DNA from: a virus
Taxonomy: Duplodnaviria > Heunggongvirae > Uroviricota > Caudoviricetes
Direction: 5' to 3' (one strand)
IMG/VR virus record: IMGVR_UViG_2671180890_000004
Length of the DNA stretch: 64,000 bases
This document shows positions 1-17,279 of this stretch, piece by piece (the stretch's first letter is position 1; every line of letters starts with the position of its first letter). Under the pieces are notes generated by a model, which was not told the origin of the DNA, searched no databases, and saw only the letters and a program-made list of their open reading frames with translations. Made by a program: the position numbers and the translations under genes.

Positions 1-275
1 ACACGCTCCCCGTTAACCAGCCTCCCCGGTTCTTCGACGAATACATTCTGACACCGGAAAATAAAGCTGAGCACGAAGAGATCAAAGCGGCGTTGTTCCG
101 GGAAATCAGGAAGATTGCTGAAATGCAACTGGGGGGCGGGCTGGACAGAGTGATGGCGAGAGGAGAATGGGAGTCGCTGTTTGAAAGAGTTTCCCCGGAA
201 TTACTTCCCCTCGCACTGGCTATCGGGATTATGCAGACAGCGGATAAACCTCACTTACGTTCATTAAACACGTAA
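1..275 (+). CDS. 3' end of an unidentified gene (partial; reading frame open from window start)
   Basis: Frame is open from position 3 to the stop at 273-275; no recognisable motif. Product unknown. Confidence 0.3.
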   Translation, partial: TLPVNQPPRFFDEYILTPENKAEHEEIKAALFREIRKIAEMQLGGGLDRVMARGEWESLFERVSPELLPLALAIGIMQTADKPHLRSLNT

Positions 276-655
276 CGCATAATCCGGGATACGCATTCAG
301 CGATGACTGCATTTTCACCGGTTTTTACTGCATCCAGAAGTGACTCTTTAAATGGTGCGGGCCGGGGCTGCAGAAGGGTCGGCGTGGCATTGAGCAGACG
401 GAGCGTTTTTTCCGTGAGGACGACATCAGCCGCTCCCACAGCCAGCAACTGAGAGTAACGAATATAGCTGTTATCCCGAAGCCATATCAGCGTATCAATA
501 AAATACCGGCACTTTTTCTGGTCGTGATCAACCTGGTCCGGGATATCGAAAAAACCAGAATAAATCAAAACCTGAGGTGCCGGATGCGTGTTCAGTAATC
601 GGCAGAATATTTTGCCGGTGAGTGCATAAAAATCATCATTTAAGGAGTGCATCAT
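251..655 (-). CDS. hypothetical protein (134 aa)
   Basis: ORF only; its start codon overlaps the divergent start of the 654..869 ORF, so the true start or reality of this gene is doubtful. Confidence 0.25.
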   Translation of the reverse strand: MMHSLNDDFYALTGKIFCRLLNTHPAPQVLIYSGFFDIPDQVDHDQKKCRYFIDTLIWLRDNSYIRYSQLLAVGAADVVLTEKTLRLLNATPTLLQPRPAPFKESLLDAVKTGENAVIAECVSRIMRYVFNERK

Positions 656-869
656 GAATCCCCGATTAACGTTAACAGAACATCAGCGCCGTGCTGAAGC
701 AGTGAACAATGTTCTGGAAGATATTATCCGGTTACATCGCGGAGAACTGAGTGTCTGTCGTGCCGCTTTTCATTTTCAGGGAATACAAAAGCAGTTTGAT
801 ACTTCTGTTTTTGCAGAAGGTATTACTTATGCCCTGGACCGGATAAGGTCAGAAAATCGCCCCGGATAA
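654..869 (+). CDS. hypothetical protein (71 aa)
   Basis: ATG at 654 preceded by AAGGAG at 642-647; followed by an 11-bp perfect-stem hairpin at 926-956. Confidence 0.35.
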   Translation: MNPRLTLTEHQRRAEAVNNVLEDIIRLHRGELSVCRAAFHFQGIQKQFDTSVFAEGITYALDRIRSENRPG

Positions 870-1060
870 TCCCTAAACCACATTAACAGAAATCCCACTA
901 TCCCTGCCGCATCATGAAAGAACGACCAGCCCGGTGCTTCGGACCCACCGGGCTGGCCATCGTCCCACAGAAGTGGCTGTGAGCCGACCGAGGTTCAGTC
1001 AGTCTCGCGAGACCAGACTAGCCTGCCATATTTTTAATAATTGTAAAAGGCTTACAGATT

Positions 1061-1825
1061 ATGAAAATGAAGACATTACCCATCGTTCCATGGATTGGTG
1101 GCAAACGTCGCCTGGCAAAACACATCCTGCCGCTGTTTCCGGCGCATGAATGTTATGTGGAGCCGTTTTGTGGGGCAGCAGCGCTCTATTTTCTTAAGAC
1201 ACCCGGCAAGATCGAAGTCATCAATGATATCAACGGTGAACTGGTGAATCTGTACCGGGTGGTAAAGCATCACCTGGAAGAATTTGTCCGCCAGTTCAAA
1301 TGGGCGCTGGTCAGCCGTCAGATCTACAAATGGCTGCAGATCACCCCGGAAGAAACACTGACGGATATCCAGCGTGCGGCACGGTTCTACTACCTTCAGA
1401 AGCAGGCGTTTGGCGGCAAGGTGGCAGAGCACAGCTTCGGTACCTCCACCACATCCCCGCCACGCTTCAACCTGCTGCGTATTGAAGAAGAACTGTCAGC
1501 AGCACACCTGCGGCTTTCCAGAACAGTCATAGAACACATGGACTGGCAACAGTGCATTGAGCGTTATGATCGTCCGCACACACTGTTCTACTGCGACCCA
1601 CCGTACCTGGGTACGGAAGGCTATGGTGTGGATTTTCCTGAAGGGAACTACTCGCGGCTGGCAGAGCTGGCCCGGTGCATCAGAGGAAAAATGATAATTT
1701 CGGTGAACGATATCCCACAGATGCGCGAGGTGTTCACTGGACTGAACATACAGACAGTGAACATCAACTACAGTCTGGCGGGGAAATCTACGCCGCGCCG
1801 TGAACTGGTAATCTGCAACTTCTGA
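1061..1825 (+). CDS. DNA adenine methyltransferase, Dam/D12 class
   Basis: N-terminal PIVPWIGGKRRL AdoMet-binding motif and catalytic DPPY motif (FYCDPPYLG) in the order typical of Dam-family enzymes. Confidence 0.8.
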   Translation: MKMKTLPIVPWIGGKRRLAKHILPLFPAHECYVEPFCGAAALYFLKTPGKIEVINDINGELVNLYRVVKHHLEEFVRQFKWALVSRQIYKWLQITPEETLTDIQRAARFYYLQKQAFGGKVAEHSFGTSTTSPPRFNLLRIEEELSAAHLRLSRTVIEHMDWQQCIERYDRPHTLFYCDPPYLGTEGYGVDFPEGNYSRLAELARCIRGKMIISVNDIPQMREVFTGLNIQTVNINYSLAGKSTPRRELVICNF

Positions 1826-1855
1826 AACAAAACCGGAAAGCACAATGCTTTCCGG
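1824..1855 (-). terminator. rho-independent terminator downstream of the minus-strand repressor gene
   Basis: Stem CCGGAAAGC / GCTTTCCGG at 1833-1855; the U-tract is on the minus strand (A-run 1824-1832). Confidence 0.4.
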
Positions 1856-1941
1856 TAAACCAAACAACTTCCACTATGTCACTGGCGATGTTTTCTGAAA
1901 GCATCCAGATCAACCACCTGTCCTTTGTGTCCAGGTCAAAA

Positions 1942-2280
1942 TCAGCCTGCGAGTTTGCTTGGTTTGGGTTGAATGAAGACTTTGCCGACCTCAAGAATTG
2001 CCCTCCGTTGTTCGGGGCTCATTTCGTCGAATGCATCCATTAACTCTTTCTTTTCTTGTGACACATAAGGTGCAACAACAGGCTGACTCCGCACCCCAGT
2101 AACTACATACAAAATATCTACACCGATTTCTGATAGTGCAGATAACTGCACTGCAGTAGGAGAAGTGCGATCTTTTTCCCAATCAATGAAAGTTCTCTTT
2201 GCCACACCTATAGCATCAGCCAACCCTTGCTGTGTAAGAGATAGACGCTCTCTTTCTTCTTTAATACGTAACCCGATCAT
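1942..2280 (-). CDS. XRE-family HTH repressor (phage c-repressor analogue)
   Basis: HTH segment LSLTQQGLADAIGVAKRTFIDWEKD; divergent from the ner-like gene as in Mu. Start chosen at the internal Met (MIGLRIKEERERL). Confidence 0.55.
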   Translation of the reverse strand: MIGLRIKEERERLSLTQQGLADAIGVAKRTFIDWEKDRTSPTAVQLSALSEIGVDILYVVTGVRSQPVVAPYVSQEKKELMDAFDEMSPEQRRAILEVGKVFIQPKPSKLAG

Positions 2281-2304
2281 GTGAGTTTTTCTGCACTCTT
2301 TAAG

Positions 2305-2333
2305 TTGACTGGTGAGGTAATCTGCACCATAAT
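2305..2333 (+). promoter_or_regulatory. candidate sigma70 early promoter (TTGACT-17-CATAAT) driving ner/A/B
   Basis: TTGACT at 2305-2310, 17-nt spacer, CATAAT at 2328-2333, ~50 nt upstream of the ner start. Confidence 0.3.
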
Positions 2334-2380
2334 CTATCACACATAAGGCAAACATCATTGCATCAACAAAGGAGACAACG

Positions 2381-2569
2381 ATGACTGCAGAACAAGTCAA
2401 AGCTCTCTTCCGCCAGCGCGGGATCACTTTCACCCGCTGGGCAGAAGAAAACGGCTACAACCGCAATGAGGTATACCGCGTTCTCAATGGGCAGACCAAA
2501 GCCCGTTACGGTAAATCCCATGAAATCGCCGTGAAGTTGGGGCTGAAATCAACAGCTCAGGCAGCCTGA
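2381..2569 (+). CDS. ner: Ner-like DNA-binding protein
   Basis: 62-aa protein with Ner-family features, positioned between the repressor and the transposase; AGGAG RBS upstream. Confidence 0.65.
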   Translation: MTAEQVKALFRQRGITFTRWAEENGYNRNEVYRVLNGQTKARYGKSHEIAVKLGLKSTAQAA

Positions 2570-2615
2570 AGATTTTGAGTCTTTGTAAAAGGTTATCACA
2601 TATCGCAAAAGAGGT

Positions 2616-2930
2616 ATGCAGATGAGTAAGACGAATGTTTCAAGCTCCGGCAGTCGCATCCTCCGGGTACTCAAAGCGCTGCGCGGTCATGCCCTGAACG
2701 GTATTTCCAACGGTGAACTGGCGGCAGCACTGCACGAGTCACCGGCAAACATCAACCGGGCACTCAACACCCTCATTGAAGAAGGGTTGGCCCTGAAACT
2801 GGAAAACGGGCGTTTCGCGCCGGGCATCCAGTTACTGCAGATCGCTATGGCCCACAGTAACGAGATGGCACGTGCACAGGATCGCATTAACGAAATCAAC
2901 CAACGTGTCATTTCAGGTAGTCGTTTGTAA
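2616..2930 (+). CDS. winged-helix DNA-binding protein
   Basis: wHTH-like segment ISNGELAAALHESPANINRALNTLIEEGLA. Confidence 0.45.
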   Translation: MQMSKTNVSSSGSRILRVLKALRGHALNGISNGELAAALHESPANINRALNTLIEEGLALKLENGRFAPGIQLLQIAMAHSNEMARAQDRINEINQRVISGSRL

Positions 2931-2940
2931 GGAGTAATAA

Positions 2941-3852
2941 ATGGGACGCACCAAATCACCGATTAACACTGAACTGAACGCCGAGGTACCGCTGTCGGAT
3001 GATCTCAATGTCAGTCTGAACGCCATGACACAGCATCGTATGGAGATCATGCAGCAGTTTGGCGATGGTCAGCCCTATGAGCGTGATCGCATAGTTCATG
3101 AGGCTCGGTTTTATATGGCACAGAGCGCTGAGGCCATGCTGGAAGCAGGTAAACGACTTATTATTCTCAAAGAAAATGAACCTCACGGGGACTTTGTTGG
3201 AATTGTAGAAGAACAACTTGGTCTGCATGTGCGCGCAGCACAACGAATGATGAAAGCATCTTTGAAATACCTTTCACCAAAACTAGAGCCAAAAGCGACA
3301 ACGTTGTCGCTTTTAGGTAAGGCAAAATTATTTGAACTTGTTGCTGAAGATGACGACGACCTTGCTGAACTGGCCGACGGTGGCACAGTTGCCGGACTGA
3401 CGCTTGACGATGTTGATCGCATGTCAGTACGTGAATTGCGTCAGGCCCTGCGCGAAGCGCGCGAAACCAACGCAGCACAACAGCGCGTACTCGCCGACAA
3501 AAATGAAAAAATAGACTCACTCTCCACCAGACTGGAGAAGAAATCCCGTATTCAGCCACCTGAGCCTGATGAAGAGGTGAAGAAACTGCGGGCAGAAGTG
3601 ACCGCGTTAGCGGTTGAGGCGGAATCTGCCATCGCCGTTCGACTGTCCAGCGCTTTTGAGACGCTGTGCGCATATTGTGCTGAAAACATGATTGATACCC
3701 CCAGAGACTTCATGGCGGGCCTGGTCTGTCAACTGGAAAGCACAGCGCGTAGCCTGCGCTCCACATTTGACCTGCCGGACGAGCCAACAGGCAATGCAGC
3801 GCCTTCATGGCTGACTGAGCCGACGCCACAGATTAACGGGCTGGAGGCATAA
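2941..3852 (+). CDS. hypothetical phage protein (303 aa)
   Basis: ORF with AAGGAG RBS immediately upstream of the transposase gene; acidic, coiled-coil-rich. Confidence 0.5.
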   Translation: MGRTKSPINTELNAEVPLSDDLNVSLNAMTQHRMEIMQQFGDGQPYERDRIVHEARFYMAQSAEAMLEAGKRLIILKENEPHGDFVGIVEEQLGLHVRAAQRMMKASLKYLSPKLEPKATTLSLLGKAKLFELVAEDDDDLAELADGGTVAGLTLDDVDRMSVRELRQALREARETNAAQQRVLADKNEKIDSLSTRLEKKSRIQPPEPDEEVKKLRAEVTALAVEAESAIAVRLSSAFETLCAYCAENMIDTPRDFMAGLVCQLESTARSLRSTFDLPDEPTGNAAPSWLTEPTPQINGLEA

Positions 3853-3855
3853 CCA

Positions 3856-5625
3856 ATGAATGCTGCCCTGACTGAACGACTGGTTTATGTCGCCCGCGCG
3901 GCACGTGACGCGGGGCATGGTAAACGCGGCGCAGTATACGACGCTGCCTGTGCTGAACTTGGCATGTCCCGCGCCACTCTGCTGCGCAGGCTGAAGGAGG
4001 TATCTGTGACTGATAAACGCAAAAAACGCGCCGATGCCGGGCGCAGCGCCCTGACCCGCGACGAAGCCGCGCTGATATCTGCCACACTGCGTGAGGCCAC
4101 CCGCAAGAACGGTAAGCGTCTCTATTCCATCGCGGATGCAGTGGAAACCCTGCGGGCTAACGGCTTTATATCCGCAGGCAGAACAGATGAAACCACCGGT
4201 GAGTTTTTCCCGTTGTCCGAAGATGCCATCAGCCGAGCCCTGCGTAACTATGGCCTGCACCCGGAACAACTGGATGCCCCTGCGCCGCATACCGAAGTGG
4301 CCAGTCTGCATCCCAATCATGTCTGGCAGATTGACGCCTCACTCTGCACGCTTTACTACCTGAGCAATGGACATAAAGGGCTGCAGGTGATGGACAGCGC
4401 GAAGTTCTACAAGAACAAGCCCGCTAACCTTGCCCGTATCGCCAGTGACCGCGTGTGGAGTTACGAGATTACCGACCATGCCAGCGGCTGGATTTACGTT
4501 GAGTATGTGACGGGCGCGGAATCAGGTGAGAACCTGTGTTCTGTGCTTATCAACGCCATGCAGGAGCGTGGCGGCGCAGACGTGCTGCACGGTGTGCCGA
4601 AAATACTCTATCTCGACCCCGGCTCGGCAAACACCGCGGGTATGACGAAAAACATGTGCCGCTCACTGGGCATCGACCTGATAGCGCACAAGCCGCATAA
4701 CGCCCGCGCCACCGGACAGGTGGAAAAGGCGCGGGACATTATCGAACGCAAGCTGGAGCCGGGTCTGAAGTTCCGGCCGGTTCACAGTCTGGAAGAACTC
4801 AACGCGCTGGCCGCGAAATGGCGCAGCCACTTTAACGCCACGGCTGTTCACAGCCGCCACGGTAAAACCCGCACGGATATCTGGCTGAAGATTACTGCTG
4901 AGCAGCTGAAAAAAGCGCCTTCCGTTGAGGTATGTCGTGAACTGGCTGTGGCGGCACCAGAACTCCGCAAAGTCACGCCAAAACTTCGTGTCTCGTTCCG
5001 GGGCACTGAATTTGACGTATCAACGGTACCGGGCGTACTGGTTGGTGAAAAACTGATGATTACCCGTAACCCGTGGCGCAGCGATGTGGCACAGGTGGTT
5101 CTGACCGGTGAGGACGGCCACGAGACGTTCTTCCTGGTCGAAGAGGTCAGAAAGAACGAGTTTGGCTTTGCTGAAGGCGCGGCGGTATTTGGCGAAAGTT
5201 ACAAAGCCCTGCCGGAAACCCCGGCGCAGATGGCGGCAAAAGAAACCGAAGCGCTGGTCACCGGTACAGACAACGCCGCAGATGCAGCTGCCGCACGCAA
5301 GGCGAAGGCGCTGCCGTTCGGCGGGCGGCTTGACCCGTATAAACATATCGACGACACCACACTTCCGGCCTATATGCCGAAGCGTGGTCAGGCCTCTGAC
5401 GTACGCGGGCCGCGCACTGAACAACGTCCCATGACTTATGTGGAGGCCGCGAAAGCCCTGCGCGATAAGTTCAGCGCCAACGGCTTTACCTGGACGCCGG
5501 AACATTACCGCCAGTTAACGGCACAGTATCCGGACGGCGTACCGGAAGCCGCACTGGATGAAGTCATGGCCACGCTGACCACGCCGGCCCGCAGCAGCGT
5601 TATCAGTATTGTTAACGGCAACTGA
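3856..5625 (+). CDS. Mu-family DDE transposase (A protein)
   Basis: Catalytic-core signatures in MuA-like context and spacing: WQIDASL, YLDPGSANT, GQVEKARD. GGAGG RBS upstream. Confidence 0.85.
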   Translation: MNAALTERLVYVARAARDAGHGKRGAVYDAACAELGMSRATLLRRLKEVSVTDKRKKRADAGRSALTRDEAALISATLREATRKNGKRLYSIADAVETLRANGFISAGRTDETTGEFFPLSEDAISRALRNYGLHPEQLDAPAPHTEVASLHPNHVWQIDASLCTLYYLSNGHKGLQVMDSAKFYKNKPANLARIASDRVWSYEITDHASGWIYVEYVTGAESGENLCSVLINAMQERGGADVLHGVPKILYLDPGSANTAGMTKNMCRSLGIDLIAHKPHNARATGQVEKARDIIERKLEPGLKFRPVHSLEELNALAAKWRSHFNATAVHSRHGKTRTDIWLKITAEQLKKAPSVEVCRELAVAAPELRKVTPKLRVSFRGTEFDVSTVPGVLVGEKLMITRNPWRSDVAQVVLTGEDGHETFFLVEEVRKNEFGFAEGAAVFGESYKALPETPAQMAAKETEALVTGTDNAADAAAARKAKALPFGGRLDPYKHIDDTTLPAYMPKRGQASDVRGPRTEQRPMTYVEAAKALRDKFSANGFTWTPEHYRQLTAQYPDGVPEAALDEVMATLTTPARSSVISIVNGN

Positions 5626-5635
5626 GGAGGGAAAC

Positions 5636-6802
5636 ATGCTGGTACTGAAGCAGCAACTGAAAGAAGCCCGTATTCCACAGGCGGTGGTGGCGAGAGCTGT
5701 CGATGTTTCTGAGGCCACGCTGGCCCAGATTGTGAATCATAACGCGTGGCCCCGCACCAGCCCCGGAGAAGTGCGCCGGCGTCTTGCGTCCTGGCTGGAA
5801 AGTCAGGGGATTGATACAACGAAGAGTTTTGATGCTGTACAGGGCGCGGCCACGCCCCGTACAGCGGGTACCACAGATAAAACGAGCCTCAGTGAGGAAG
5901 AGAATATGTTACTCAAAAAACAGGTGTTATTTCCAGCAACCAAAAAAGCGTTTGGTCTTTTCCGTGACCCGTTCGCCGACGAAGCCATGCAGGGTTCTGA
6001 TGATGTGTTCACCACCCCGGATATTCGCTACGTGCGTGAGGCGTTGTACCAGACAGCCCGTCATGGTGGGTTTATGGCCGTCATCGGTGAGTCCGGTGCG
6101 GGTAAATCCACGCTGCGCCGCGACCTGACTGAACGTATCAACCGCGAGAATGCGCCGGTAATTGTTATCGAGCCATACATCATCGCTATGGAAGACAACG
6201 ATGTGAAAGGGAAAACCCTGAAGGCAGCAGCGATTGCCGAAGCCATTATCAGTACCATCGCACCACTGGAAAGCATCAGACGCAGTCAGGACGCCCGCTT
6301 TCGCCAGTTGCATCGCGTCCTGAAAGACAGCAGCCAGGCGGGGTTCAGCCACGTTCTGGTGATTGAGGAGGCCCACAGTCTGCCCATTCCGACACTGAAA
6401 CACCTCAAACGCTTTTTTGAGCTGGAGTCCGGTTTCAAAAAACTGCTGTCCATCGTGCTGATTGGCCAGCCGGAACTGGCGACAAAACTGTCTGAACGCA
6501 ATATGGAAGTCCGTGAAGTCGTTCAGCGCTGTGAGGTGGTCGAACTTCTGCCTCTGGACAATAACCTTGAAGAGTTTCTGACGTTCAAACTGCAACGGGC
6601 CGGTAAACAACTGACGGACATTATGGACGCCAGCGCAGTGGATGCCATACGTGCCCGCCTGAGCAATCCGGGAAGTCATCGTAAAAATATGGTCAGCCTG
6701 CTGTATCCGCTGGCCGTCAGTAACCTGGTAATAGCCGCCATGAATCTGGCCGCTGAAATCGGGGTTCCACAGGTCAACGCTGACGTTGTCAAAGGGGTTT
6801 AA
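5636..6802 (+). CDS. MuB-like transposition ATPase (AAA+)
   Basis: Walker A GESGAGKST and Walker B VLVIEEAH; located directly after the transposase. Confidence 0.8.
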   Translation: MLVLKQQLKEARIPQAVVARAVDVSEATLAQIVNHNAWPRTSPGEVRRRLASWLESQGIDTTKSFDAVQGAATPRTAGTTDKTSLSEEENMLLKKQVLFPATKKAFGLFRDPFADEAMQGSDDVFTTPDIRYVREALYQTARHGGFMAVIGESGAGKSTLRRDLTERINRENAPVIVIEPYIIAMEDNDVKGKTLKAAAIAEAIISTIAPLESIRRSQDARFRQLHRVLKDSSQAGFSHVLVIEEAHSLPIPTLKHLKRFFELESGFKKLLSIVLIGQPELATKLSERNMEVREVVQRCEVVELLPLDNNLEEFLTFKLQRAGKQLTDIMDASAVDAIRARLSNPGSHRKNMVSLLYPLAVSNLVIAAMNLAAEIGVPQVNADVVKGV

Positions 6803-6804
6803 TA

Positions 6805-7074
6805 ATGAAATCCACCACAGGTATCAACCAGCAAATCAGCAAAGTGCAGTCAGCCATTATGGCGCTTAAGGCGACGAACACGGATGTACAAAGCATCACC
6901 ATCAGGGGTAACAAACCTGTCATCCGCGTTTCCCGGAGTGCGCATTGCATGCGCATGCTTGAGCAGGGAAAGGCCTGTTATCTGTATACCGGTCATGACC
7001 ACAGGGGACATTTCCGTCAGGGCGTTTTCGAACTGCACGGCTGTCGCGTCGTGTGGCCGGAATCTTTGTGGTAA
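6805..7074 (+). CDS. hypothetical early-region protein
   Basis: ORF in the semi-essential region between B and gam. Confidence 0.45.
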   Translation: MKSTTGINQQISKVQSAIMALKATNTDVQSITIRGNKPVIRVSRSAHCMRMLEQGKACYLYTGHDHRGHFRQGVFELHGCRVVWPESLW

Positions 7075-7101
7075 TCAGCACAACAGGAGGAGTCATAAAA
7101 T

Positions 7102-7632
7102 ATGGCAAAAAGTACAAAAGGGGCAAAACGTATCAAAGCCGCAGCAGCACTCTGGGTGCCGGGGACACGCGAAGAGGTCATTGAGGGAATCAGACTGCTT
7201 GGTGACGCGCAACGTGAACTGGTCAGGGCTGAAACAGAAATGAATGACACCATTGGCGACATCACCGCACGTTATGCCCCGCTCACCGAGAGCCTGAAAA
7301 AACGCATGGCCGAACTGCAGTCCGGTATTCAGACATGGTGTGAGGCACACCGTGATGAACTGACCGGCAACGGGAAGGTGAAGTTCGCTAACCTCACCAC
7401 CGGCGAGGTGCAGTGGCGAAACCGTCCGCCGTCAGTCAGTATCCGTGGGGCGGATAATGTTATTGAATTACTGAGACGTCTGGGGCTTGAGCGCTTTATC
7501 CGTGTAAAGGAGGAAATAAATAAAGACGCCATCCTGAATGAAAAGGACGCCGTGAAAAATATTCCCGGTATTACCATAAAAAGTGATATTGAGGATTTTT
7601 CAATAATTCCTTTTGAGCAGAATGTGCAGTAA
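7102..7632 (+). CDS. gam: host-nuclease inhibitor Gam (Mu Gam family)
   Basis: Strong recalled similarity to Mu Gam, e.g. RPPSVSIRG...LGLERFIR...GITIKSDIEDFSIIPFEQ. Confidence 0.8.
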   Translation: MAKSTKGAKRIKAAAALWVPGTREEVIEGIRLLGDAQRELVRAETEMNDTIGDITARYAPLTESLKKRMAELQSGIQTWCEAHRDELTGNGKVKFANLTTGEVQWRNRPPSVSIRGADNVIELLRRLGLERFIRVKEEINKDAILNEKDAVKNIPGITIKSDIEDFSIIPFEQNVQ

Positions 7633-7728
7633 AAACAGCATATAAGCTATTTAAAACAGCCTTTTCTTTTTTATTCCGGCATCAGCGCCGTGGGCTTCTG
7701 CACGCCGGAAACAGAGGAGAATTAAATC

Positions 7729-7923
7729 ATGATATTTAAATGTATTCAGTGCGAGAGGGATATAACAGCCCTGCGTTTTCACAGCGCCATCGCCGTGATG
7801 TCCGGTAAGTACCACGTACCTGCAGTACGCGTCACCCTGGTCTGTCCGTACTGCAGTCAGCATTTTTCGGCAGACGTGCCCGTCATGGAATTCTCCCGCC
7901 CTGACAGGGAGGACTCGCAATGA
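7729..7923 (+). CDS. small Cys-rich (zinc-ribbon-like) protein
   Basis: CxxC...CPYC cysteine pairs in a 64-aa ORF. Confidence 0.4.
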   Translation: MIFKCIQCERDITALRFHSAIAVMSGKYHVPAVRVTLVCPYCSQHFSADVPVMEFSRPDREDSQ

Positions 7924-8192
7924 TTACCCCACAGGAAGCACGACAGCGCACCCGAACCCTTGTTGAACACTATGTCAACGAGTGTGAATGCCGCGACCTC
8001 ACCGATGTGAAGCACGTCCTGACGGCGCTAATCAGCATGACCGCTCAGGCCATTGTGGCGACCAACGGAAAGGCGGCTGCCCTGCAGGTACTGGTGAACA
8101 CACTCACCCACACGGCAGAGCACGATGTGCCGTACCGGATGGAAACCACTGCAGAAGGCGGCCTGAACATCACCGTCGACCGGAAACACTGA
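7920..8192 (+). CDS. hypothetical protein
   Basis: ORF with start overlapping the upstream stop (coupled). Confidence 0.4.
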   Translation: MITPQEARQRTRTLVEHYVNECECRDLTDVKHVLTALISMTAQAIVATNGKAAALQVLVNTLTHTAEHDVPYRMETTAEGGLNITVDRKH

Positions 8193-8201
8193 GGGCGCGG
8201 C

Positions 8202-8507
8202 ATGACACGGAACACCGAACTCACCCGCACCGCCCTCTACCGTCTGGCCCTGCAGCGTTTCGGGCCGGACGCACAGGCCCTGAAACTGACAGAAGAGGCC
8301 GCTGAACTGGCGGCCAGTGCCGCCCGCAACCTGAACGGACAGGGCAGCGAAAGTGACCTCGCGGCAGAGCTGGCAGACGTGGAAATCATGACAGAGCAGC
8401 TGCGCCTTCAGGGAATGGACCGGCTGATTGACTTCCACAAACAGAAAAAACTGGAACGCCTTGCCGCACGGCTGGGCGTCATGTACACCGGAGATACTGA
8501 ACAATGA
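8202..8507 (+). CDS. MazG-like nucleotide pyrophosphohydrolase domain protein
   Basis: EEAAELAA...ELADVEIM helix pair typical of MazG/NTP-PPase. Confidence 0.45.
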   Translation: MTRNTELTRTALYRLALQRFGPDAQALKLTEEAAELAASAARNLNGQGSESDLAAELADVEIMTEQLRLQGMDRLIDFHKQKKLERLAARLGVMYTGDTEQ

Positions 8508-9187
8508 CAGACCAGGATAAACACATTGAGAAACTGAAAAAGTTGCTGGCGCTGGCCGCATCCGGCAACCCTCACGAGGCCGCTCTGGCACTGCGCCGTG
8601 CCCGTAAACTGATGGATGTTCACGGCATCACACATTCCGACATCGCCATGAGTGATATTGATGAAACCATCAGTCACTACTGGCCGACAGGCAGCCTCCG
8701 TCCACCGCGCTACATGCTGGGCCTGATGAACATCATCCGCGAGGCATTTGGTGTTAACTCCATCATTCACCCCGGCACATATCCGGGTGTGGGGTTCTAC
8801 GGCAACCGGGAACGGGCTGCACTGGCTGCGTACACCTGGGAAGTGCTGGCCCGCCAGCTGAAAAAGGCGCGTCAGCAATATATCAGCGCACAGAACAAAA
8901 GAATAAAAACTGCCACCCGTACCAGCCGTGGTGACCAGTTTGCTGAAGGCTGGGTGCTGGCCGTTATCAGTGAAATACAGTCCTTCGCCCTGACCGATGA
9001 CGAACGTGAACTGATGCAGCAGTGGCTGGAACATAAATACCCGCAGACGCAAACCACCAGGGCGCGTAAACCGGGAAGAAGCCGCAATGGCGACGCCTCG
9101 CGCTATGCGGGGTTTCTTGAAGGGCAGAACGTCAGACTGCACCGCCCGGTCAGTGGGCAGGAACAACAGAAACTGGAGGCCAGATGA
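8504..9187 (+). CDS. DUF2786-like phage protein
   Basis: N-terminal KLKKLLALAASGNPHEAALALRRARKLM signature. Confidence 0.5.
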   Translation: MTDQDKHIEKLKKLLALAASGNPHEAALALRRARKLMDVHGITHSDIAMSDIDETISHYWPTGSLRPPRYMLGLMNIIREAFGVNSIIHPGTYPGVGFYGNRERAALAAYTWEVLARQLKKARQQYISAQNKRIKTATRTSRGDQFAEGWVLAVISEIQSFALTDDERELMQQWLEHKYPQTQTTRARKPGRSRNGDASRYAGFLEGQNVRLHRPVSGQEQQKLEAR

Positions 9188-9414
9188 TTACGCTATCAGG
9201 TAAAAGCCGGAAATTAAAAGCCTGCCGAATATCTGCCAGATACCTTTTTGCCCGCGCCTTTTTTAAGAACGTCAGGCCGGGGATCACAATTGGTGTTATT
9301 GCCGGACGCGAACAGGTTGAAAAATACATGTCAGGTGCATGGTGGAATAACGACCCTGTCATTGCTGCCCGTAATATTCATATCAGTTGGGGGGATATTC
9401 AGAATGACGGCTGA
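9184..9414 (+). CDS. hypothetical protein
   Basis: ORF with overlapping stop/start on both sides. Confidence 0.3.
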   Translation: MITLSGKSRKLKACRISARYLFARAFFKNVRPGITIGVIAGREQVEKYMSGAWWNNDPVIAARNIHISWGDIQNDG

Positions 9415-9619
9415 ATCTGTTGTATGTGCCCTGTTCTGGTATTGTTTTGTCGGTTGGTGTACTGCTGAACTGCACCGCCGTTCAGGGTTTTATTCACGTT
9501 ACAGTGGTGCTGGCTACTGGATTAGCTGGTCGGTGATGTTCCTGTGCTGGCCTGTGGCGCTTCCTTTATATGTCGATTATATCGGTGGCGCAGGTAAAAG
9601 GAGCAACGATGATGACTAA
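9404..9619 (+). CDS. small membrane protein
   Basis: Two hydrophobic helices (VVCALFWYCFVGW, WSVMFLCWPVALPLYV). Confidence 0.35.
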   Translation: MTAESVVCALFWYCFVGWCTAELHRRSGFYSRYSGAGYWISWSVMFLCWPVALPLYVDYIGGAGKRSNDDD

Positions 9620-10061
9620 ACAACGTCTTATCCAGCTCATTCATATTGCCCGTAATGAACTGGGTATGGATGAAGACACCTACCGCCAGATGTTACAGGG
9701 GCTGACCGGTAAAGCCTCAACCAAAGGAATGGATACCACACAACTAAACTGCGTGCTGGAATCCATGAAAAGGAAAGGCTTTCGCGTTAAGCCTGCCGGA
9801 AAAGCCAGCTCCGGTTTACCGCTGGATAACCATCCGCAGTCCAGGAAAATCCGTGCGCTATGGCTTGAAATGGCTGCTGCCGGCATTGTTCGTGACCGTT
9901 CAGAAAATGCATTAGCGCGGTGGATCAAGCGGGAAACGGGCATCAGCGCCCTGCGCTGGCTCAGTACTGAACAGGCAAGCAGTGTTATTGAGAAACTGAA
10001 GAAGTGGCAGCGCAGAGCTGCGGGAGTCAAACATGAGCGACCTGAATCAGTTTCGAAGTAA
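9609..10061 (+). CDS. gemA: GemA-like protein (Mu gp16 family)
   Basis: Size and position immediately upstream of mor; AAGGAG RBS. Confidence 0.55.
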   Translation: MMTKQRLIQLIHIARNELGMDEDTYRQMLQGLTGKASTKGMDTTQLNCVLESMKRKGFRVKPAGKASSGLPLDNHPQSRKIRALWLEMAAAGIVRDRSENALARWIKRETGISALRWLSTEQASSVIEKLKKWQRRAAGVKHERPESVSK

Positions 10062-10431
10062 AGGGCCGGAACTCCTGGTGGAGCTGGCACAGCATACCTC
10101 TGAGACCGTTCGCGAGATTATTGATATTGAGCCCGCAATTGCCGACCAGATTGGTCAGGCCGTCGCGAACCGAATGATGCAGGTCTGGGGCGGGCAAAAC
10201 GTTTATTTCCCGATGGGCATGGTATGGAAGGTCAGTCAGCGCGACCGGGAAATCTTCAGGGAGTTTAACGGACGCAACCACCACGAACTGGCCCGCAAGT
10301 TTGGTGTTTCGCTTCAGTGGGTCTACAGCGTGGTTAAGCGGGTCAGAAAAGAAGAACTGGATCGGATGCAGGGCAGGTTGTTTGATGAAGATCTGCCAGA
10401 GGAGACGAAAGACGTTAACAAATCCAGATAA
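10033..10431 (+). CDS. mor: Mor-family middle-operon transcription activator
   Basis: C-terminal HTH (HELARKFGVSLQWVYSVVKRVRK) and position after gemA. Confidence 0.7.
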   Translation: MSDLNQFRSKGPELLVELAQHTSETVREIIDIEPAIADQIGQAVANRMMQVWGGQNVYFPMGMVWKVSQRDREIFREFNGRNHHELARKFGVSLQWVYSVVKRVRKEELDRMQGRLFDEDLPEETKDVNKSR

Positions 10432-10476
10432 TTCCTGCTTGTTAAAGTCCTTTCAAAAATCTCCTTATTGTATAAA

Positions 10477-10507
10477 AGCACGGTAGACCCCTTACCGTGC
10501 TTTTTTT
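10477..10507 (+). terminator. rho-independent terminator after mor
   Basis: Stem GCACGGTA / TACCGTGC followed by T7. Confidence 0.6.
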
Positions 10508-10545
10508 ATGCTCTCTCTTTAGTATTCAGGATGCAGGGAGAAAAT

Positions 10546-11178
10546 ATGTTTGACGTTTCGTTGTTAAATCTGCCATGGGCAACACTGGTGACCCTGACCA
10601 GTGGCTATATTGGGTATTTTATTGCGAATGTGGGACTGAAGGATCACCACAAGCCCATTGAGGTGACTTTTTCTTCGCTGATTTTTGGCCTGACAGCAAT
10701 GATGGCTTACCAGGCTGTTATGTGGGCAGGTCTGAATGCCTGGCTGGCAACACCACCAGCACTTCTGTGTGCCCTTACATGCGGTGCGTGGTGGCGCAGG
10801 TACGGTCGCAAATGGATGTACAGATTACTGTGGAATAATGATATTTCATGGTCTGACGATACCAGCTCAGCATGGCAGGCAATGTTTGATCAAACAGGCT
10901 TCAGCGTTACCGAGGTCAGAGTGATTCTTCGCGATGGTTCCGGTATGATGTCACGGCTGCCAGGGAACTTTGAAGAGTGGCCTAACGGTCCGTTTACCCT
11001 GGGGAATAAAGGCGATATGGTTCTTTACGTCACGCACAGCAGCCCTTCAGGCAGTAACGAATGGGAAGAGTATAAAGGCGTGGTTGATAAGTACTGGGGA
11101 GCTCTGGCAACCTATATTCCAGCAGATCAGATTGCCAGAGTGGAGATCAGGCGCGTTCGTGCAACGAACGATGAATGA
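10546..11178 (+). CDS. membrane protein with C-terminal soluble domain
   Basis: ATG at 10546 with GGGAGA RBS; three or four N-terminal hydrophobic helices. Last gene before the gabP junction. Confidence 0.45.
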   Translation: MFDVSLLNLPWATLVTLTSGYIGYFIANVGLKDHHKPIEVTFSSLIFGLTAMMAYQAVMWAGLNAWLATPPALLCALTCGAWWRRYGRKWMYRLLWNNDISWSDDTSSAWQAMFDQTGFSVTEVRVILRDGSGMMSRLPGNFEEWPNGPFTLGNKGDMVLYVTHSSPSGSNEWEEYKGVVDKYWGALATYIPADQIARVEIRRVRATNDE

Positions 11179-11526
11179 TGTTTATTTTTTCCCTGGGGCA
11201 GGGGCTGCCGGCATAGTGGTTTTATTGGCAGAGGAAGACGATTCTCCTTTTCTACCGGAATCGCGCTCGAACGTCACGATGTGCTTGCTTTTGGGCTTTT
11301 CTGAGTAATCCAGGCTATCATGCTTATTGTTTTGAGTAGTCATTGGAATCATCCTTTTTGTTGCGGGTCATGTTTCAGCAAACTCGATTCTAAGTTGCCA
11401 GGAAGGATGATTTCAATGCCCGACTTATCTATCGTATAGCGGAAAAGAATTTCAGTTCTGTTCACCAGAACCCATGTTAACCCACTCCAATTCGTTATTT
11501 ATCTCACGGATCCCCCTTCATTTATC

Positions 11527-11913
11527 TCATGTCTGATCAGGAATGCCTGGAACCCATGAGTGCAGGATCATGGCGGCGATGTTGGCTTCAAGTGGGATAA
11601 CCAGTACCCAAAACCACCAGTACAACCAGCCGATGGTATAGCCCGCCCAGCGGCCAATGGCTTTATCGGCATAGGTGGAAAACGAACCGGTATCGGGCGT
11701 GGCAACCGCCATTTCCGCCAACATCCGCATAATCATAACCACCAGTAATCCGGCGAACAGATAGGCCAGTAATACCGCCGGGCCCGCTTCGGCGATGGCG
11801 ACGCTGGAACCGACAAACAGACTTGCGCCGATAACACCGGCAATAGACAACATGGTGACGTGGCGTGACTTCAGCCCGCCGCCTAACTCATGTGGTTGCG
11901 ATGATTGCCCCAT
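11527..11913 (-). pseudogene. gabP: gabP, truncated GABA permease (N-terminal ~125 codons only)
   Basis: Near-identical to the E. coli GabP N-terminus up to ...HSWVPGIP, then diverges (DQT-stop); the remaining ~340 codons are absent from the window. Confidence 0.85.
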
Positions 11914-12149
11914 CCTGAATCCTCTCGAAAGTGTGTCACTTGGGAGAGCGCCCCGACATTTCCCGCGTCGGGTCACGCGTTTAATTGTTATTGGTTCTTT
12001 TTGCCGGAGAGCGGCTCCGCCTTATCCGGCCGACATAGATTTATTCCTGTTCACGTACAGATTGTCGGATGCGGCGTAAACGCCTTATCCGACCTGGATT
12101 CTCGTAGGCCGGACAAGCCGCAAAGCGTCGCCTCCGGCATGGTGCGGTG

Positions 12150-13436
12150 CTACAGCTTCGCCTCAGCAAAACACTGGCTGATGATCTCCAGACCCTGACG
12201 GATCTGAGCGTCTTCAATGGTGAGCGGTACAAGGATGCGCAGCACGTTGTAATACGGGCCGCAGGAGAGAAGAATCAGACCCTTATCGCGGGCGCGTGCC
12301 ACGATCTCGGCGGTGAGTTTTGCGTCCGGTTTGCTGTGATCGCCATCTTCAAACAGCTCGATGGCGATCATCGCCCCCAGACCGCGTACGTCGCCGATCT
12401 CCGGGTGTTTTTCGGCTATCGCCAGCAATCCGTCTTTCAGCTTCTGCCCCAGAACGTTGGCTTTTTGCAGCAGATTTTCCTGCTCGAACACCTTCAACAC
12501 TTCCAGCGCCGCTACGCAGGCAATCGGGTTACCGGCATAGGTGCCACCCAGTCCGCCCGGTGCGACGGCGTCCATCACTTCCGCGCGCCCGGTGACGCCC
12601 GCCAGCGGGAAACCGCCTGCGATCGATTTCGCAAAGGTGGTGAGATCTGGTGCCACGCCCATTTGCTCCATCGCAAACAGCGTGCCGGTACGCCCTGCGC
12701 CGCTCTGCACTTCATCGGCAATCAGCATGATCCCGTGCTCGTCACACAGCGCGCGTAAACGCTGCATAAAGGCTGGCGTCGCGGCGTAGAAACCGCCTTC
12801 GCCCTGAACGGGCTCAATCACGATGGCGGCGATATCTTCCGGCGCGGCGTCATTTTTGAAGATCCGGTGGATGCTGGCGATAGCGTCATCCTCGCTTATG
12901 CCGTGCAGCGGGCAAGGATAAAGCGCGCGATAAACATGACCCGGCATCAGCCCCATGCCCGCAGAGTACGGATTCACCTTGCCGGTCAGCGCCAGCGTGT
13001 AATGCGTGCGCCCGTGATACGCACCGCTAAAGGCGATAGTACCGCTACGTTTAGTGGCGGCGCGGGCGATTTTCACCGCATTTTCCACCGCTTCGGAACC
13101 GGTCGTAACCAGCAGAGTTTTCTTGGCAAAATCGCCCGGCACCTTCTGATTCATAATCTCGCACAGCTCCAGATACGGCTCGTAGGCCAGCACCTGGAAG
13201 CAGGTGTGCGACAGTTTTTTCAATTGCGCTTCCACCGCCGCAACCACTTTCGGATGCAGGTGCCCGGTATTGAGCACCGCAATCCCGCCCGCGAAATCAA
13301 GATACTCACGGCCTTCAACGTCCCACACCCGGCAGTTTTCCGCGCGGTCAGCGAAAATCGGGTGAATTTGCCCAACGCCACGGGGAATCGCCTGACTGCG
13401 GCGCTGCATTAACTCTTTATTGCTGATCATTCGCAT
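12150..13436 (-). CDS. gabT: 4-aminobutyrate aminotransferase
   Basis: Full-length match to E. coli GabT (recalled). Confidence 0.95.
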   Translation of the reverse strand: MRMISNKELMQRRSQAIPRGVGQIHPIFADRAENCRVWDVEGREYLDFAGGIAVLNTGHLHPKVVAAVEAQLKKLSHTCFQVLAYEPYLELCEIMNQKVPGDFAKKTLLVTTGSEAVENAVKIARAATKRSGTIAFSGAYHGRTHYTLALTGKVNPYSAGMGLMPGHVYRALYPCPLHGISEDDAIASIHRIFKNDAAPEDIAAIVIEPVQGEGGFYAATPAFMQRLRALCDEHGIMLIADEVQSGAGRTGTLFAMEQMGVAPDLTTFAKSIAGGFPLAGVTGRAEVMDAVAPGGLGGTYAGNPIACVAALEVLKVFEQENLLQKANVLGQKLKDGLLAIAEKHPEIGDVRGLGAMIAIELFEDGDHSKPDAKLTAEIVARARDKGLILLSCGPYYNVLRILVPLTIEDAQIRQGLEIISQCFAEAKL

Positions 13437-13443
13437 TCTCCAG

Positions 13444-14892
13444 TTAAAGACCGATGCACATATATTTGATTTCTAAGTAATCTTCGATGCCATACTTCGA
13501 ACCTTCACGACCCAGACCCGAGGCTTTAATGCCGCCGAACGGGGCCACTTCATTGGAAATAATGCCGGTGTTGATGCCGATGATGCCGTACTCCAGTGCT
13601 TCGCCCACGCGGAAGACGCGGCTTAAATCACGGGCGTAGAAATAGGCTGCAAGTCCAAATTCGGTGTCATTGGCTTGCGCAATCACATCGGCTTCATCTT
13701 TAAAACGGAACAGCGGGGCGAGGGGGCCAAACGTCTCTTCTTTCGACACTTTGGCGTTAGCCGGAACGTCTACCAGAATGGTCGGCTGGAAGAAGTTACC
13801 GCCGCGTTCATGTGCTTTACCGCCGCAAACCACGCGCGCGCCTTTCTCCAGCGCATCAGCAATATGCTCTTCCACTTTTGCTACCGCTTTTTCATCGATC
13901 AACGGCCCGATGGTGACGCCTTTCTCCAGCCCGTCGCCGATGTGCAGTTTGCTCACCGCCTGCTGCAATTTTTCGGCAAAGCGGTCATACACGCTGTCCT
14001 GCACATACAGGCGGTTGGCGCAGACGCAGGTTTGCCCGGCGTTACGGAATTTCGAGGCCAGCGCGCCTTCCACGGCTTTATCGAGATCGGCATCGTCAAA
14101 GACAATAAACGGTGCGTTGCCGCCCAGCTCCAGCGACACTTTTTTGATGTCTTTCGCGCACTGTTCCATTAACTGACGGCCAATTTCGGTCGAGCCGGTA
14201 AACGACAGCTTGCGCACCAGCGGGTTGCTGGTCAGTTCGTTACCGACCGCGCCCGCCGAACCGGTGACCACGTTAAACACGCCAGCCGGAACGCCCGCGC
14301 GAATCGCCAGTTCTGCCAGCGCCAGCGCAGAGAACGGCGTCTGACTGGCGGGCTTCAGCACCATGGTGCAGCCAGCCGCCAGCGCCGGACCAGCTTTACG
14401 GGTAATCATCGCCGCCGGGAAGTTCCATGGCGTGATAGCCGCGGTGACGCCAATCGGCTGCTTGATCACAATCAGGCGTTTATCGGCCTGATGACCGGGA
14501 ATGGTGTCGCCATAAATACGTTTGCCTTCTTCAGCAAACCACTCAATAAATGAGGCGGCGTAGCTGATTTCGCCTTTCGCTTCAGCCAGTGGTTTGCCCT
14601 GTTCGAGGGTCATCAGGCGCGCTAAATCGTCCTGATGCTCCATCATTAAATTGAACCAGTTGCGCAGAATGTTGGCGCGTTCTTTGGCAGTGAGCGCACG
14701 CCAGGCGGGCAGGGCGCGGCTGGCGGCGTCGATAGCGGCGCGGGTTTCATCAGCGCCCATTTTCGGCACGCTACCCAGCTTGTCGCCGTTCGCCGGATTG
14801 GTGACGTCGATGACCTCGCCATTGTTGGCGTCCAGCCATTCCCCGTTAATCAACGCCTGCTGGCGGAATAAGTTACTGTCGTTAAGTTTCAT
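13444..14892 (-). CDS. gabD: succinate-semialdehyde dehydrogenase
   Basis: Full-length match to E. coli GabD (482 aa). Confidence 0.95.
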   Translation of the reverse strand: MKLNDSNLFRQQALINGEWLDANNGEVIDVTNPANGDKLGSVPKMGADETRAAIDAASRALPAWRALTAKERANILRNWFNLMMEHQDDLARLMTLEQGKPLAEAKGEISYAASFIEWFAEEGKRIYGDTIPGHQADKRLIVIKQPIGVTAAITPWNFPAAMITRKAGPALAAGCTMVLKPASQTPFSALALAELAIRAGVPAGVFNVVTGSAGAVGNELTSNPLVRKLSFTGSTEIGRQLMEQCAKDIKKVSLELGGNAPFIVFDDADLDKAVEGALASKFRNAGQTCVCANRLYVQDSVYDRFAEKLQQAVSKLHIGDGLEKGVTIGPLIDEKAVAKVEEHIADALEKGARVVCGGKAHERGGNFFQPTILVDVPANAKVSKEETFGPLAPLFRFKDEADVIAQANDTEFGLAAYFYARDLSRVFRVGEALEYGIIGINTGIISNEVAPFGGIKASGLGREGSKYGIEDYLEIKYMCIGL

Positions 14893-14917
14893 CGCTACAT
14901 CCTGTTTTCAAAGGTTA

Positions 14918-16183
14918 TTAATTAAATGCGGCGTGTAAGGCATCCACACTACGTGCCGCTCGCAGCGTGCGTCCGGGGTTACTCTGGCTTGCCAACAGCG
15001 TTTGTACCTTGCTGACAATATGCGCACCAATAGGAATTGCTGATGTCGCTGCCGGGGAGGGCGCATTACAGGTGTGGATCGTGCGCGGGGTGGTGACAAA
15101 CAGAAAATCGTCAATCAGCTTGCCGTCCGGCGATACCGCCTGCGCCCGCACACCGGGGGGCCAGGGCTGGAGATCGCTTAACGAAAGCCGGGGACAATAC
15201 TTTTGCACCAGCCGCAGATAGCCGCTTTTGCACAGCGAGTTTTTCATCTCGCCCAGTCCTGAGCGTAGATGGTTTTGCAGCACCCGGCGAATCCCCGACG
15301 AGCCTAAAATCTCCAGCGTGTCACTAAATGAGAAGTCGCGCTTGCGGTAGCCTTCGCGTTTGAAAGCCAGCACCGCGTTTGGCCCGACGGTCACGCTGCC
15401 GTCGATCATGCGGGTGAGATGCACGCCCAAAAACGGCATTGCCGGGTCGGGAATGGGGTAAATCAGGTGGTTAACAATCTGGTTATGCTCTGGCGCAAGG
15501 CGGAAATACTCGCCGCGGAACGGGCAGATAATAAAGCCCGGTTCGAGGCCGAGCATTTTCACCAGCCGGTCAGCCATCAGCCCGGAACAACTAATCAGCG
15601 TCGATGCTTCATATTCACCGCCCTGACGGGTACGTATCACCACGCCGTTTTTATGCTCACTGAGGGCGCTGACTTCGGCGTTATAAATAATCTCACCACC
15701 TCTGGCCTGGAAGATTTTTGCCATCGCCGCCGTCACTTCGCGGTAGCTGACAATGCCGCTGGACGGCACAAAAATGCCGCCAAGCCCGGTGATATTCGGT
15801 TCACGCTCGCGCAGCTCCTCGGCGTTTAACCACTCGCGCTCGATCCCGTTTGCCGCCGTGCGTTTCCATAACGCATTCATCCGTTCCATTTCGAGTTCAG
15901 ACGTGGCGACCAGCATCTTGCCGCAGTTGTCGTAGCGAATGCCGTTTTGATCGCAAAAGACTTTAGTGGCGCGGTTCCCCGCCAGGCAAAACTGCGTCTT
16001 CAGGCTACCGGGCGTGTAATAGACTCCGGCATGGATCACGCCGCTGTTGTGGCCCGTCTGGTGACAGGCAGGGCCGGACTCTTTTTCCAGCAACGCAATG
16101 CGGGCGTCAGGATAGATATCAATCAGTTGCATGGCGGTCGACATGCCGATGATGCCGCCGCCAATAATCACAAAATCATACAT
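14918..16183 (-). CDS. lhgO: L-2-hydroxyglutarate oxidase/dehydrogenase
   Basis: Start at MYDFVIIGGG (FAD-binding GxGxxG); matches E. coli LhgO (422 aa). Confidence 0.9.
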   Translation of the reverse strand: MYDFVIIGGGIIGMSTAMQLIDIYPDARIALLEKESGPACHQTGHNSGVIHAGVYYTPGSLKTQFCLAGNRATKVFCDQNGIRYDNCGKMLVATSELEMERMNALWKRTAANGIEREWLNAEELREREPNITGLGGIFVPSSGIVSYREVTAAMAKIFQARGGEIIYNAEVSALSEHKNGVVIRTRQGGEYEASTLISCSGLMADRLVKMLGLEPGFIICPFRGEYFRLAPEHNQIVNHLIYPIPDPAMPFLGVHLTRMIDGSVTVGPNAVLAFKREGYRKRDFSFSDTLEILGSSGIRRVLQNHLRSGLGEMKNSLCKSGYLRLVQKYCPRLSLSDLQPWPPGVRAQAVSPDGKLIDDFLFVTTPRTIHTCNAPSPAATSAIPIGAHIVSKVQTLLASQSNPGRTLRAARSVDALHAAFN

Positions 16184-16202
16184 CCGCTCAATTCCTTTGC
16201 GC

Positions 16203-17279
<1,077 letters not shown>

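Follow-up and report, generated by a model that had tools for sequence, protein, structure and literature searches.

A BcepMu-type transposable prophage adjoining a truncated gabP gene in Escherichia coli

The gabP gene of an Escherichia coli strain is broken at the exact terminal nucleotide of a prophage that is mobile across E. coli genomes. The prophage is of the BcepMu type and was very probably inserted in gabP by transposition. The stretch of DNA analysed here (64 kb in full, termed the window) holds the Mor-proximal end of this prophage, abutting the 5′ fragment of gabP. Truncation of gabP through insertion of a transposable phage had been put forward in the original prediction, and that central claim is upheld.

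The breakpoint in gabP

Two overlapping features define the junction.

11540..11913, minus strand: gabP nt 1–374 (codons 1–124 and two bases of codon 125), 100% identical to the SK1144 gene, 125/125 aa identical to K-12
11527..11913, minus strand: chimeric 128-aa ORF, GabP residues 1–125 followed by D-Q-T, the exact product being AML05817.1

The minus-strand ORF begins with an ATG at 11913 and terminates with a TGA at 11529–11527, and the first 125 residues of its 128-aa product are identical to those of K-12 GabP at all 125 positions. Alignment to a reference gabP, a step suggested in the original prediction, fixes the breakpoint. The DNA match to the K-12 gene stops after nt 374, at window position 11540 (...GGCATTCC), beyond which K-12 gabP reads CATCTGG and the window TGATCAGACATGAGATAAATG. 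The gene of strain SK1144 is a closer allele, matching at 374/374 nt and at none past nt 374. The break is located inside codon 125, so that 341 gabP codons are missing from the window. The codons for D-Q-T are read from the phage terminus, at 11538–11530, and are followed directly by the TGA. The original prediction was thus right that gabP is truncated and that the frame diverges into DQT-stop, but its figure of about 128 codons describes how long the chimeric product is and not where gabP breaks. Its claim that the remaining ~340 codons are outside the window is confirmed, since neither blastn nor tblastn found gabP nt 375–1401 anywhere in the 64 kb. The same searches of the window found neither csiR (also named gabC) nor the left end of the prophage.

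In GenBank the chimeric product is the 'hypothetical protein AVR74_14045' (AML05817.1), encoded on a 4,897,758-bp (4.90-Mb) E. coli contig, presumably the one from which the window comes; the product is better regarded as a gabP pseudogene fragment made by the prophage insertion. In place of the full-length ~466-aa, 12-helix GabP permease, the ORF provides residues 1–125 alone before DQT-stop. The stub would contain about the first three of the twelve transmembrane helices, and as such cannot be expected to form a working permease. GabP imports GABA and 5-aminovalerate (PMC6265302). With 125 of 466 residues left, it is reasonable to infer that GabP-mediated uptake of both compounds would be lost, and the strain should fail to take up either of them by this route.

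Finding the 3′ fragment of gabP through its predicted product was discarded. The frame that runs into gabP from the left end of the phage has no start codon until gabP codon ~183, so the junction would fall outside any predicted product. Exact gabP fragments of 278, 271, 260, 256 and 252 aa are present in the protein collection; they could not be linked to the strain and are not taken as evidence.

The junction in two assemblies

The 128-aa chimeric product is also encoded on the 28,354-bp Logan contig SRR8871715_144, which derives from an independent short-read assembly of run SRR8871715. Over the 10,565 bp compared, this contig is 100% identical to window 12091–1527, and its size puts the DNA past the junction at no less than 27.8 kb. 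The contig stops 178 bp upstream of the start of gabP, inside a region of REP/BIME-like palindromic repeats (gccggataaggcg...cgccgcatccgaca) located at window ~11985–12100, in the gabT–gabP intergenic region just upstream of gabP. It is plausible that such a repeat lies behind the break in the contig.

Misassembly of the junction, a doubt that the original prediction had itself raised, would mean that a prophage end from elsewhere was joined chimerically to the 5′ region of gabP. Assemblies typically break at prophage ends and at repeats such as the REP elements upstream of gabP, and when window 10400–12400 was compared by megablast with 5426 complete E. coli genomes, none of them (0/5426) spanned the gabP junction. 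However, the same join is present in the Logan assembly and in the 4.9-Mb GenBank contig, and it falls on the exact terminus of the transposon, not inside a repeat. With two assemblies in agreement and a join so placed, misassembly is very unlikely indeed, its probability being close to negligible.

The prophage within the window

Window 1–11539 makes up the right-hand 11.5 kb of a transposable prophage ~38.3 kb long, and is 99.98–99.99% identical to other copies of the element. It is collinear with complete prophages, and separated from the Esc30 copy by 2 nt and from that of MS20675 by a single nt; the SNP at window 3717, the only one that sets the gabP copy apart from both, is synonymous. 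The first bases of the window fall within a gene, positions 3–275 encoding the C-terminal 90 aa (from codon ~158) of a 247-aa prophage protein. After it come a DNA adenine methylase, a repressor and the early operon, including Gam, GemA and Mor, and then two small accessory ORFs. The principal features are as follows.

1..11539, plus strand: Mor-proximal part of the ~38.3 kb BcepMu-type prophage, collinear with the right ends of the Esc30 and MS20675 copies
3856..5625, plus strand: DDE (rve) transposase of the Tn552/BcepMu lineage, 589 aa (Pfam rve, phrog_310)
5636..6802, plus strand: MuB-like transposition ATPase (ExeA/AAA_22 type), 388 aa (Pfam AAA_22, phrog_296)
10033..10431, plus strand: Mor-family late-transcription activator (Pfam Mor, E=1e-43; position equivalent to BcepMu gp01)
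10546..11178, plus strand: 210-aa phage ORF of unknown function (phrog_12870, full length, E=3e-133)
11182..11343, minus strand: 53-aa conserved phage ORF of unknown function (phrog_15726, E=1e-41; RefSeq WP_001571575.1)
11344..11539, no strand assigned: non-coding right terminus, ~196 bp, which adjoins seven different host sequences elsewhere

The ATPase matches AAA_22 with E=4e-20 and belongs to phrog_296, 'DNA transposition protein'; its position is that of BcepMu gp08. Mor is the last conserved early gene before the end of the prophage, from which it is separated by 1.1 kb. Between Mor and the terminus are the 210-aa ORF, annotated in all RefSeq copies, and the 53-aa ORF (WP_001571575.1), annotated in every RefSeq copy examined. 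Neither has a Pfam match; the 210-aa ORF is missing from BcepMu, and the 53-aa ORF (phrog_15726) has no BcepMu counterpart at that position. Sites of this sort are where prophages carry accessory or moron genes. The ~350 bp of DNA next to the junction that had been described as non-coding in the original prediction therefore comprise the ~196-bp phage terminus together with the 53-aa ORF.

The gene for the Dam-like DNA adenine methylase (MethyltransfD12; window 1061–1825, plus strand) adjoins that of the repressor (window 1942–2433, minus strand). The repressor/immunity region differs among otherwise near-identical copies, with repressor genes of 339–459 nt, and in the copy of strain M-17 it contains extra genes for a nucleoid-associated protein and a hypothetical protein. 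This variability suggests that several immunity types exist within the group.

The phage DNA visible in the window amounts to 11.5 kb only, as might be expected if gabP adjoined not a full prophage but a shortened or defective remnant, a module of the early region alone. Yet the window is collinear with full prophages down to its first base and starts inside a gene, the Logan contig with the same junction should, by its length, continue for at least 27.8 kb past it, and the nearest copy, that of MS20675, is 38,341 bp long with an uninterrupted tape-measure ORF. A remnant is therefore highly improbable.

Complete copies in other E. coli genomes

In the megablast search many genomes matched the left 1140–1141 bases of window 10400–12400 at 99.7–100% and then gave way to various host genes (sfaA, malE, irp1, rfaH, tdh, rstB and yfaV among them). 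Since the right-end sequence abuts different host genes from genome to genome, window 11539 marks the point at which a mobile element ends. In 117 of the 5426 complete genomes (~2%) the terminal 1.1 kb is present to 80% or more, beside many different genes, with up to 3 matches in some genomes when short partial relics are included. Copies are found at many unrelated sites, among them malE, irp1, clbG, fryA and gudD.

The annotated complete copies are 37.7–40.2 kb long, with 38,341 bp for that of MS20675. Starting at the far end, the prophage comprises a Gin-like invertase and an invertible tail-fibre segment, and continues with the late genes, transcribed leftward, for a P2-like baseplate, tail, sheath and tube, a Mu-like head, the portal (DUF935) and terminase, and an SLT lysin and holin. 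After these come the DNA adenine methylase and an HTH repressor. The early operon then runs rightward through two small DNA-binding proteins, DUF3102, the 589-aa rve transposase, the ExeA-type AAA+ ATPase, Gam, a pyrophosphohydrolase, DUF2786, GemA and Mor, following which the 210-aa and 53-aa ORFs lead to the end of the element.

Individual copies have features of their own. In several of the copies (loci L004 14495–17707, L013 14655–17867 and L002 17923–21133) the tape-measure gene is split by RefSeq into two pseudogene pieces labelled 'partial'. A defective prophage was considered on account of this split gene and ruled out, as the 1070-aa ORF is uninterrupted in MS20675 and ECAMP047; in these two the 'partial' calls are annotation artefacts. 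The Esc30 copy has a real length change or frameshift in the tape-measure gene. The MS 21-1 copy (NZ_CP146670.1, L014 34144–36395), located in a fryA-type gene, has its baseplate J gene interrupted by ISEc10, an element of the IS21 family; this insertion accounts for the 40.2-kb length of the copy and probably makes it defective. An apparent mismatch of its flanks (fryA/ptsP) was examined as a rearrangement and rejected, because the two flanks come from one fryA-type gene and have the 6-bp repeat GCCAGC in common.

Termini and target-site duplication

The element has the same ends in all seven complete copies, 5′-TGATGCGCCGCGCGATAAATG ... CATTTATCTCATGTCTGATCA-3′. The ends read TGATGCG... and ...TGATCA, and are thus of the form 5′-TG...CA-3′, with the terminal CA at window 11538–11539. 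Both have TGAT at nt 1–4 and the motif G[AC]GATAAAT at nt 12–20 and 35–43, in inverted orientation. In the window there are two subterminal GAGATAAAT repeats, at 11520–11528 and 11497–11505 (minus-strand sense), and repeats of this type are presumed to be transposase-binding sites.

Each complete copy (7/7) is located at a different locus, and each is flanked by a perfect 6-bp direct repeat.

malE: GAAGGT
irp1: ACTTGC
kbl/tdh: GAAAGC
rstA/rstB: GCTGGT
clbH/clbG: CCGCGC
fryA: GCCAGC
gudD: CCATGT

The length of 6 bp is that of these seven junction pairs from complete copies, and it replaces the 5-bp duplication anticipated in the original prediction. For BcepMu, text searches of the literature found no explicit figure for the length of the target duplication.

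In the window the terminus occupies 11519–11539, and the next six bases, GGAATG, correspond to gabP nt 369–374 on the other strand (CATTCC).

11540..11545, no strand assigned: predicted right-hand 6-bp target-site duplication, GGAATG, from the 6-bp repeats in 7/7 complete copies

The target duplication in gabP is thus predicted to be GGAATG on the plus strand, with its right-hand half alone visible in the window, and on the same strand the left junction is predicted to read ...CCAGATGGGAATG followed directly by TGATGCG... Exact-pattern scans of genome_contigs and metagenome_contigs gave 0 matches for this predicted left junction (ATCGCGCGGCGCATCACATTCCNATNTGG) and for the observed right junction.

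An orphan copy of ~145 bp of the right terminus, ~89.7% identical to window 11386–11530, is present on many large E. coli plasmids and some chromosomes. The plasmids come from poultry and human isolates, and the orphan is unannotated. In the one copy examined, on plasmid p1 (NZ_CP059908.1; L011 4001–4144), it is found in an IS1/IS3-rich mosaic beside a LysR gene, and ends ...CATTTATCTCATTGATGCA, a variant terminus. The orphan looks like the relic end of a related transposable phage.

Insertion of the prophage in gabP

The arrangement is best explained as follows. A BcepMu-type temperate myophage with a Mu-like lifestyle would have integrated by DDE transposition through a 6-bp staggered cut in gabP, inserting between nt 374 and 375 and duplicating nt 369–374. 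The rest of the ~38 kb prophage would extend leftward past the window edge, and beyond it would come the second 6-bp copy, gabP nt 369–1401 and csiR, placing the 3′ part of gabP ~26.8 kb left of window position 1. The outcome would be the 128-aa chimeric stub, with GabP-dependent uptake gone and the catabolic csiD-lhgO-gabDT genes left intact. Since the left edge of the window cuts through a prophage gene, we infer that the left junction and the gabP 3′ part lie beyond its edge. No deletion is needed, and the deletion that the original prediction had allowed for after the insertion becomes superfluous. The early region abuts the host junction because the early operon of BcepMu/B3-type phages is inverted, so that it is the Mor-proximal end that is found there; this is the normal layout for the family and not a sign of truncation or deletion.

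Transposable phages can produce adjacent deletions and inversions. Following insertion in or near gabP, such an event might have removed or moved the 3′ part of gabP, perhaps together with csiR, leaving the two prophage ends flanked by different genes. This would fit a window that holds no gabP 3′ sequence and has the left junction outside its view, and the multiple copies suggested by some genomes, in which the terminal 1.1 kb is matched as many as 3 times, could act as recombination substrates. Against it, the edge of the window in mid-prophage is by itself enough to account for the missing 3′ part, the right junction is exactly on the terminal nucleotide, and all seven complete copies are simple insertions with matching 6-bp repeats. 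We therefore regard a deletion or inversion as decidedly unlikely, and simple transpositional insertion as the preferred reading.

The neighbouring gab genes

12156..17180, minus strand: gabT, gabD, lhgO and csiD/glaH, the intact upstream genes of the operon (full-length gap-free tblastn alignments)

The original prediction was correct in stating that the upstream genes of the gab operon are intact. The products of csiD/glaH, lhgO, gabD and gabT align with the K-12 proteins over their full length, without gaps and at 96–99% identity. The csiR gene is directly downstream of gabP, and its product represses the csiD operon (PMC6265302). In the simple insertion a 38-kb prophage would separate csiR from the gab promoters, and given the position and role of csiR a polar effect on it is conceivable. 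The consequences could then extend beyond loss of GabP. Expression of CsiR might be lowered with derepression of csiD-lhgO-gabDT, or a phage-mediated rearrangement might have removed the segment from the gabP 3′ part to csiR; we consider this wider effect unlikely. If true, it would mean rewired regulation of the catabolism of glutarate, L-2-hydroxyglutarate and GABA that could be selected in the lineage.

Taken as simple insertion, the split gabP is a routine case of a temperate transposable phage, of a family already described, knocking out a gene by a known mechanism, with no new biology. Its practical value is that the TGATGCG.../...TGATCA ends and the 6-bp duplication help to delimit such prophages and to spot the genes that they split.

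Relationship to known transposable phages

On the grounds of sequence the prophage is classed as a BcepMu/B3-type, Tn552-related transposable phage, and not as a Mu-type phage. The 589-aa transposase was compared by tblastn with 50,697 phage records, and 69 records matched at E<=1e-5. It is 98% identical to that of Escherichia phage PhiKM and 93.5% to that of Phi06_2974 B, the only two Escherichia records among the 69 by the first word of the organism name. Identity is 68–69% to the Burkholderia phages BcepMu (Bcepmuvirus) and phiE255 and to a Ralstonia phage (68.3% over 98% of the length for BcepMu, 69.2% for phiE255) and 56% to the Pseudomonas B3 group, and the Pfam rve match is above the gathering score. 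Mu, D108 and SfMu are absent from the 69 records matched at this threshold.

Phages of this group have 5′-TG...CA-3′ termini (PMC2628397), a transposase of the Tn552-IS1604 family and two divergent gene clusters (PMC2771037), and in the B3-like phages the early operon is inverted relative to Mu (PMC5977238). The prophage has each of these features. Its rve transposase is homologous to BcepMu gp09 and adjacent to an ExeA-type ATPase; its early operon is inverted with respect to Mu and runs to the nearer end, with Mor beside the terminus and the late genes divergent; and its TG...CA termini have inverted subterminal motifs and occur at many unrelated sites with a duplication of fixed length.

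The prophage matches BcepMu in its transposase, ATPase, Gam, GemA and Mor. The gene order is mirror-collinear (end-Mor-GemA-...-pyrophosphohydrolase-ATPase-transposase-...-repressor-holin-SLT lysin-terminase-portal-head-P2-like tail), with the ATPase directly after the transposase as in gp09-gp08 and Mor as the terminal gene. Both phages have TGA... termini (TGAAG... in BcepMu), with G[AC]GATA[AT][AT]T at nt 12–20 and 35–43 of both ends. Unlike BcepMu, the host is E. coli, the extra 210-aa and 53-aa ORFs are located between Mor and the terminus, and the far end has, in place of the BcepMu acyltransferase, a Gin-like invertase with a switchable tail-fibre segment. At the nucleotide level no similarity of the prophage to BcepMu or phiE255 was detectable.

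Three phages are relatives at the nucleotide level: Escherichia phage PhiKM (PQ738613.1), with 95.5% identity over 84% of the prophage part of the window, and Escherichia phage Phi06_2974 B and Klebsiella phage KP12, ~86% identical over 52–54%. The PhiKM match ends at window 10391, leaving uncovered the terminal 1.1 kb with the 210-aa and 53-aa ORFs. All three are deposited phage records, unlike the prophage resident in gabP. The Pseudomonas B3 group, with 56% transposase identity, is more distant than BcepMu and differs in host; it too has an early operon inverted relative to Mu. The late genes of the B3 group are of the siphovirus type.

With Mu the prophage shares random transpositional integration that knocks out host genes, homologues of Gam, GemA and Mor, TG...CA ends and a Gin-type invertible tail-fibre segment. 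It differs in that its transposase is not related to MuA, its early operon is inverted and its target duplication is 6 bp compared with 5 bp for Mu. The order in Mu is attL-c-ner-A-B-...-mor-lys-head-tail-attR, all rightward after c. In the prophage the late genes are beyond the repressor and run in the opposite direction to the early operon, while Mor is 1.1 kb from the end. The 'Mu-like module' with its early region, as the original prediction had named it, is thus better described as window 1–11539 of a ~38 kb BcepMu/B3-type prophage, the Mor-proximal end of an element with a Tn552-type rve transposase.
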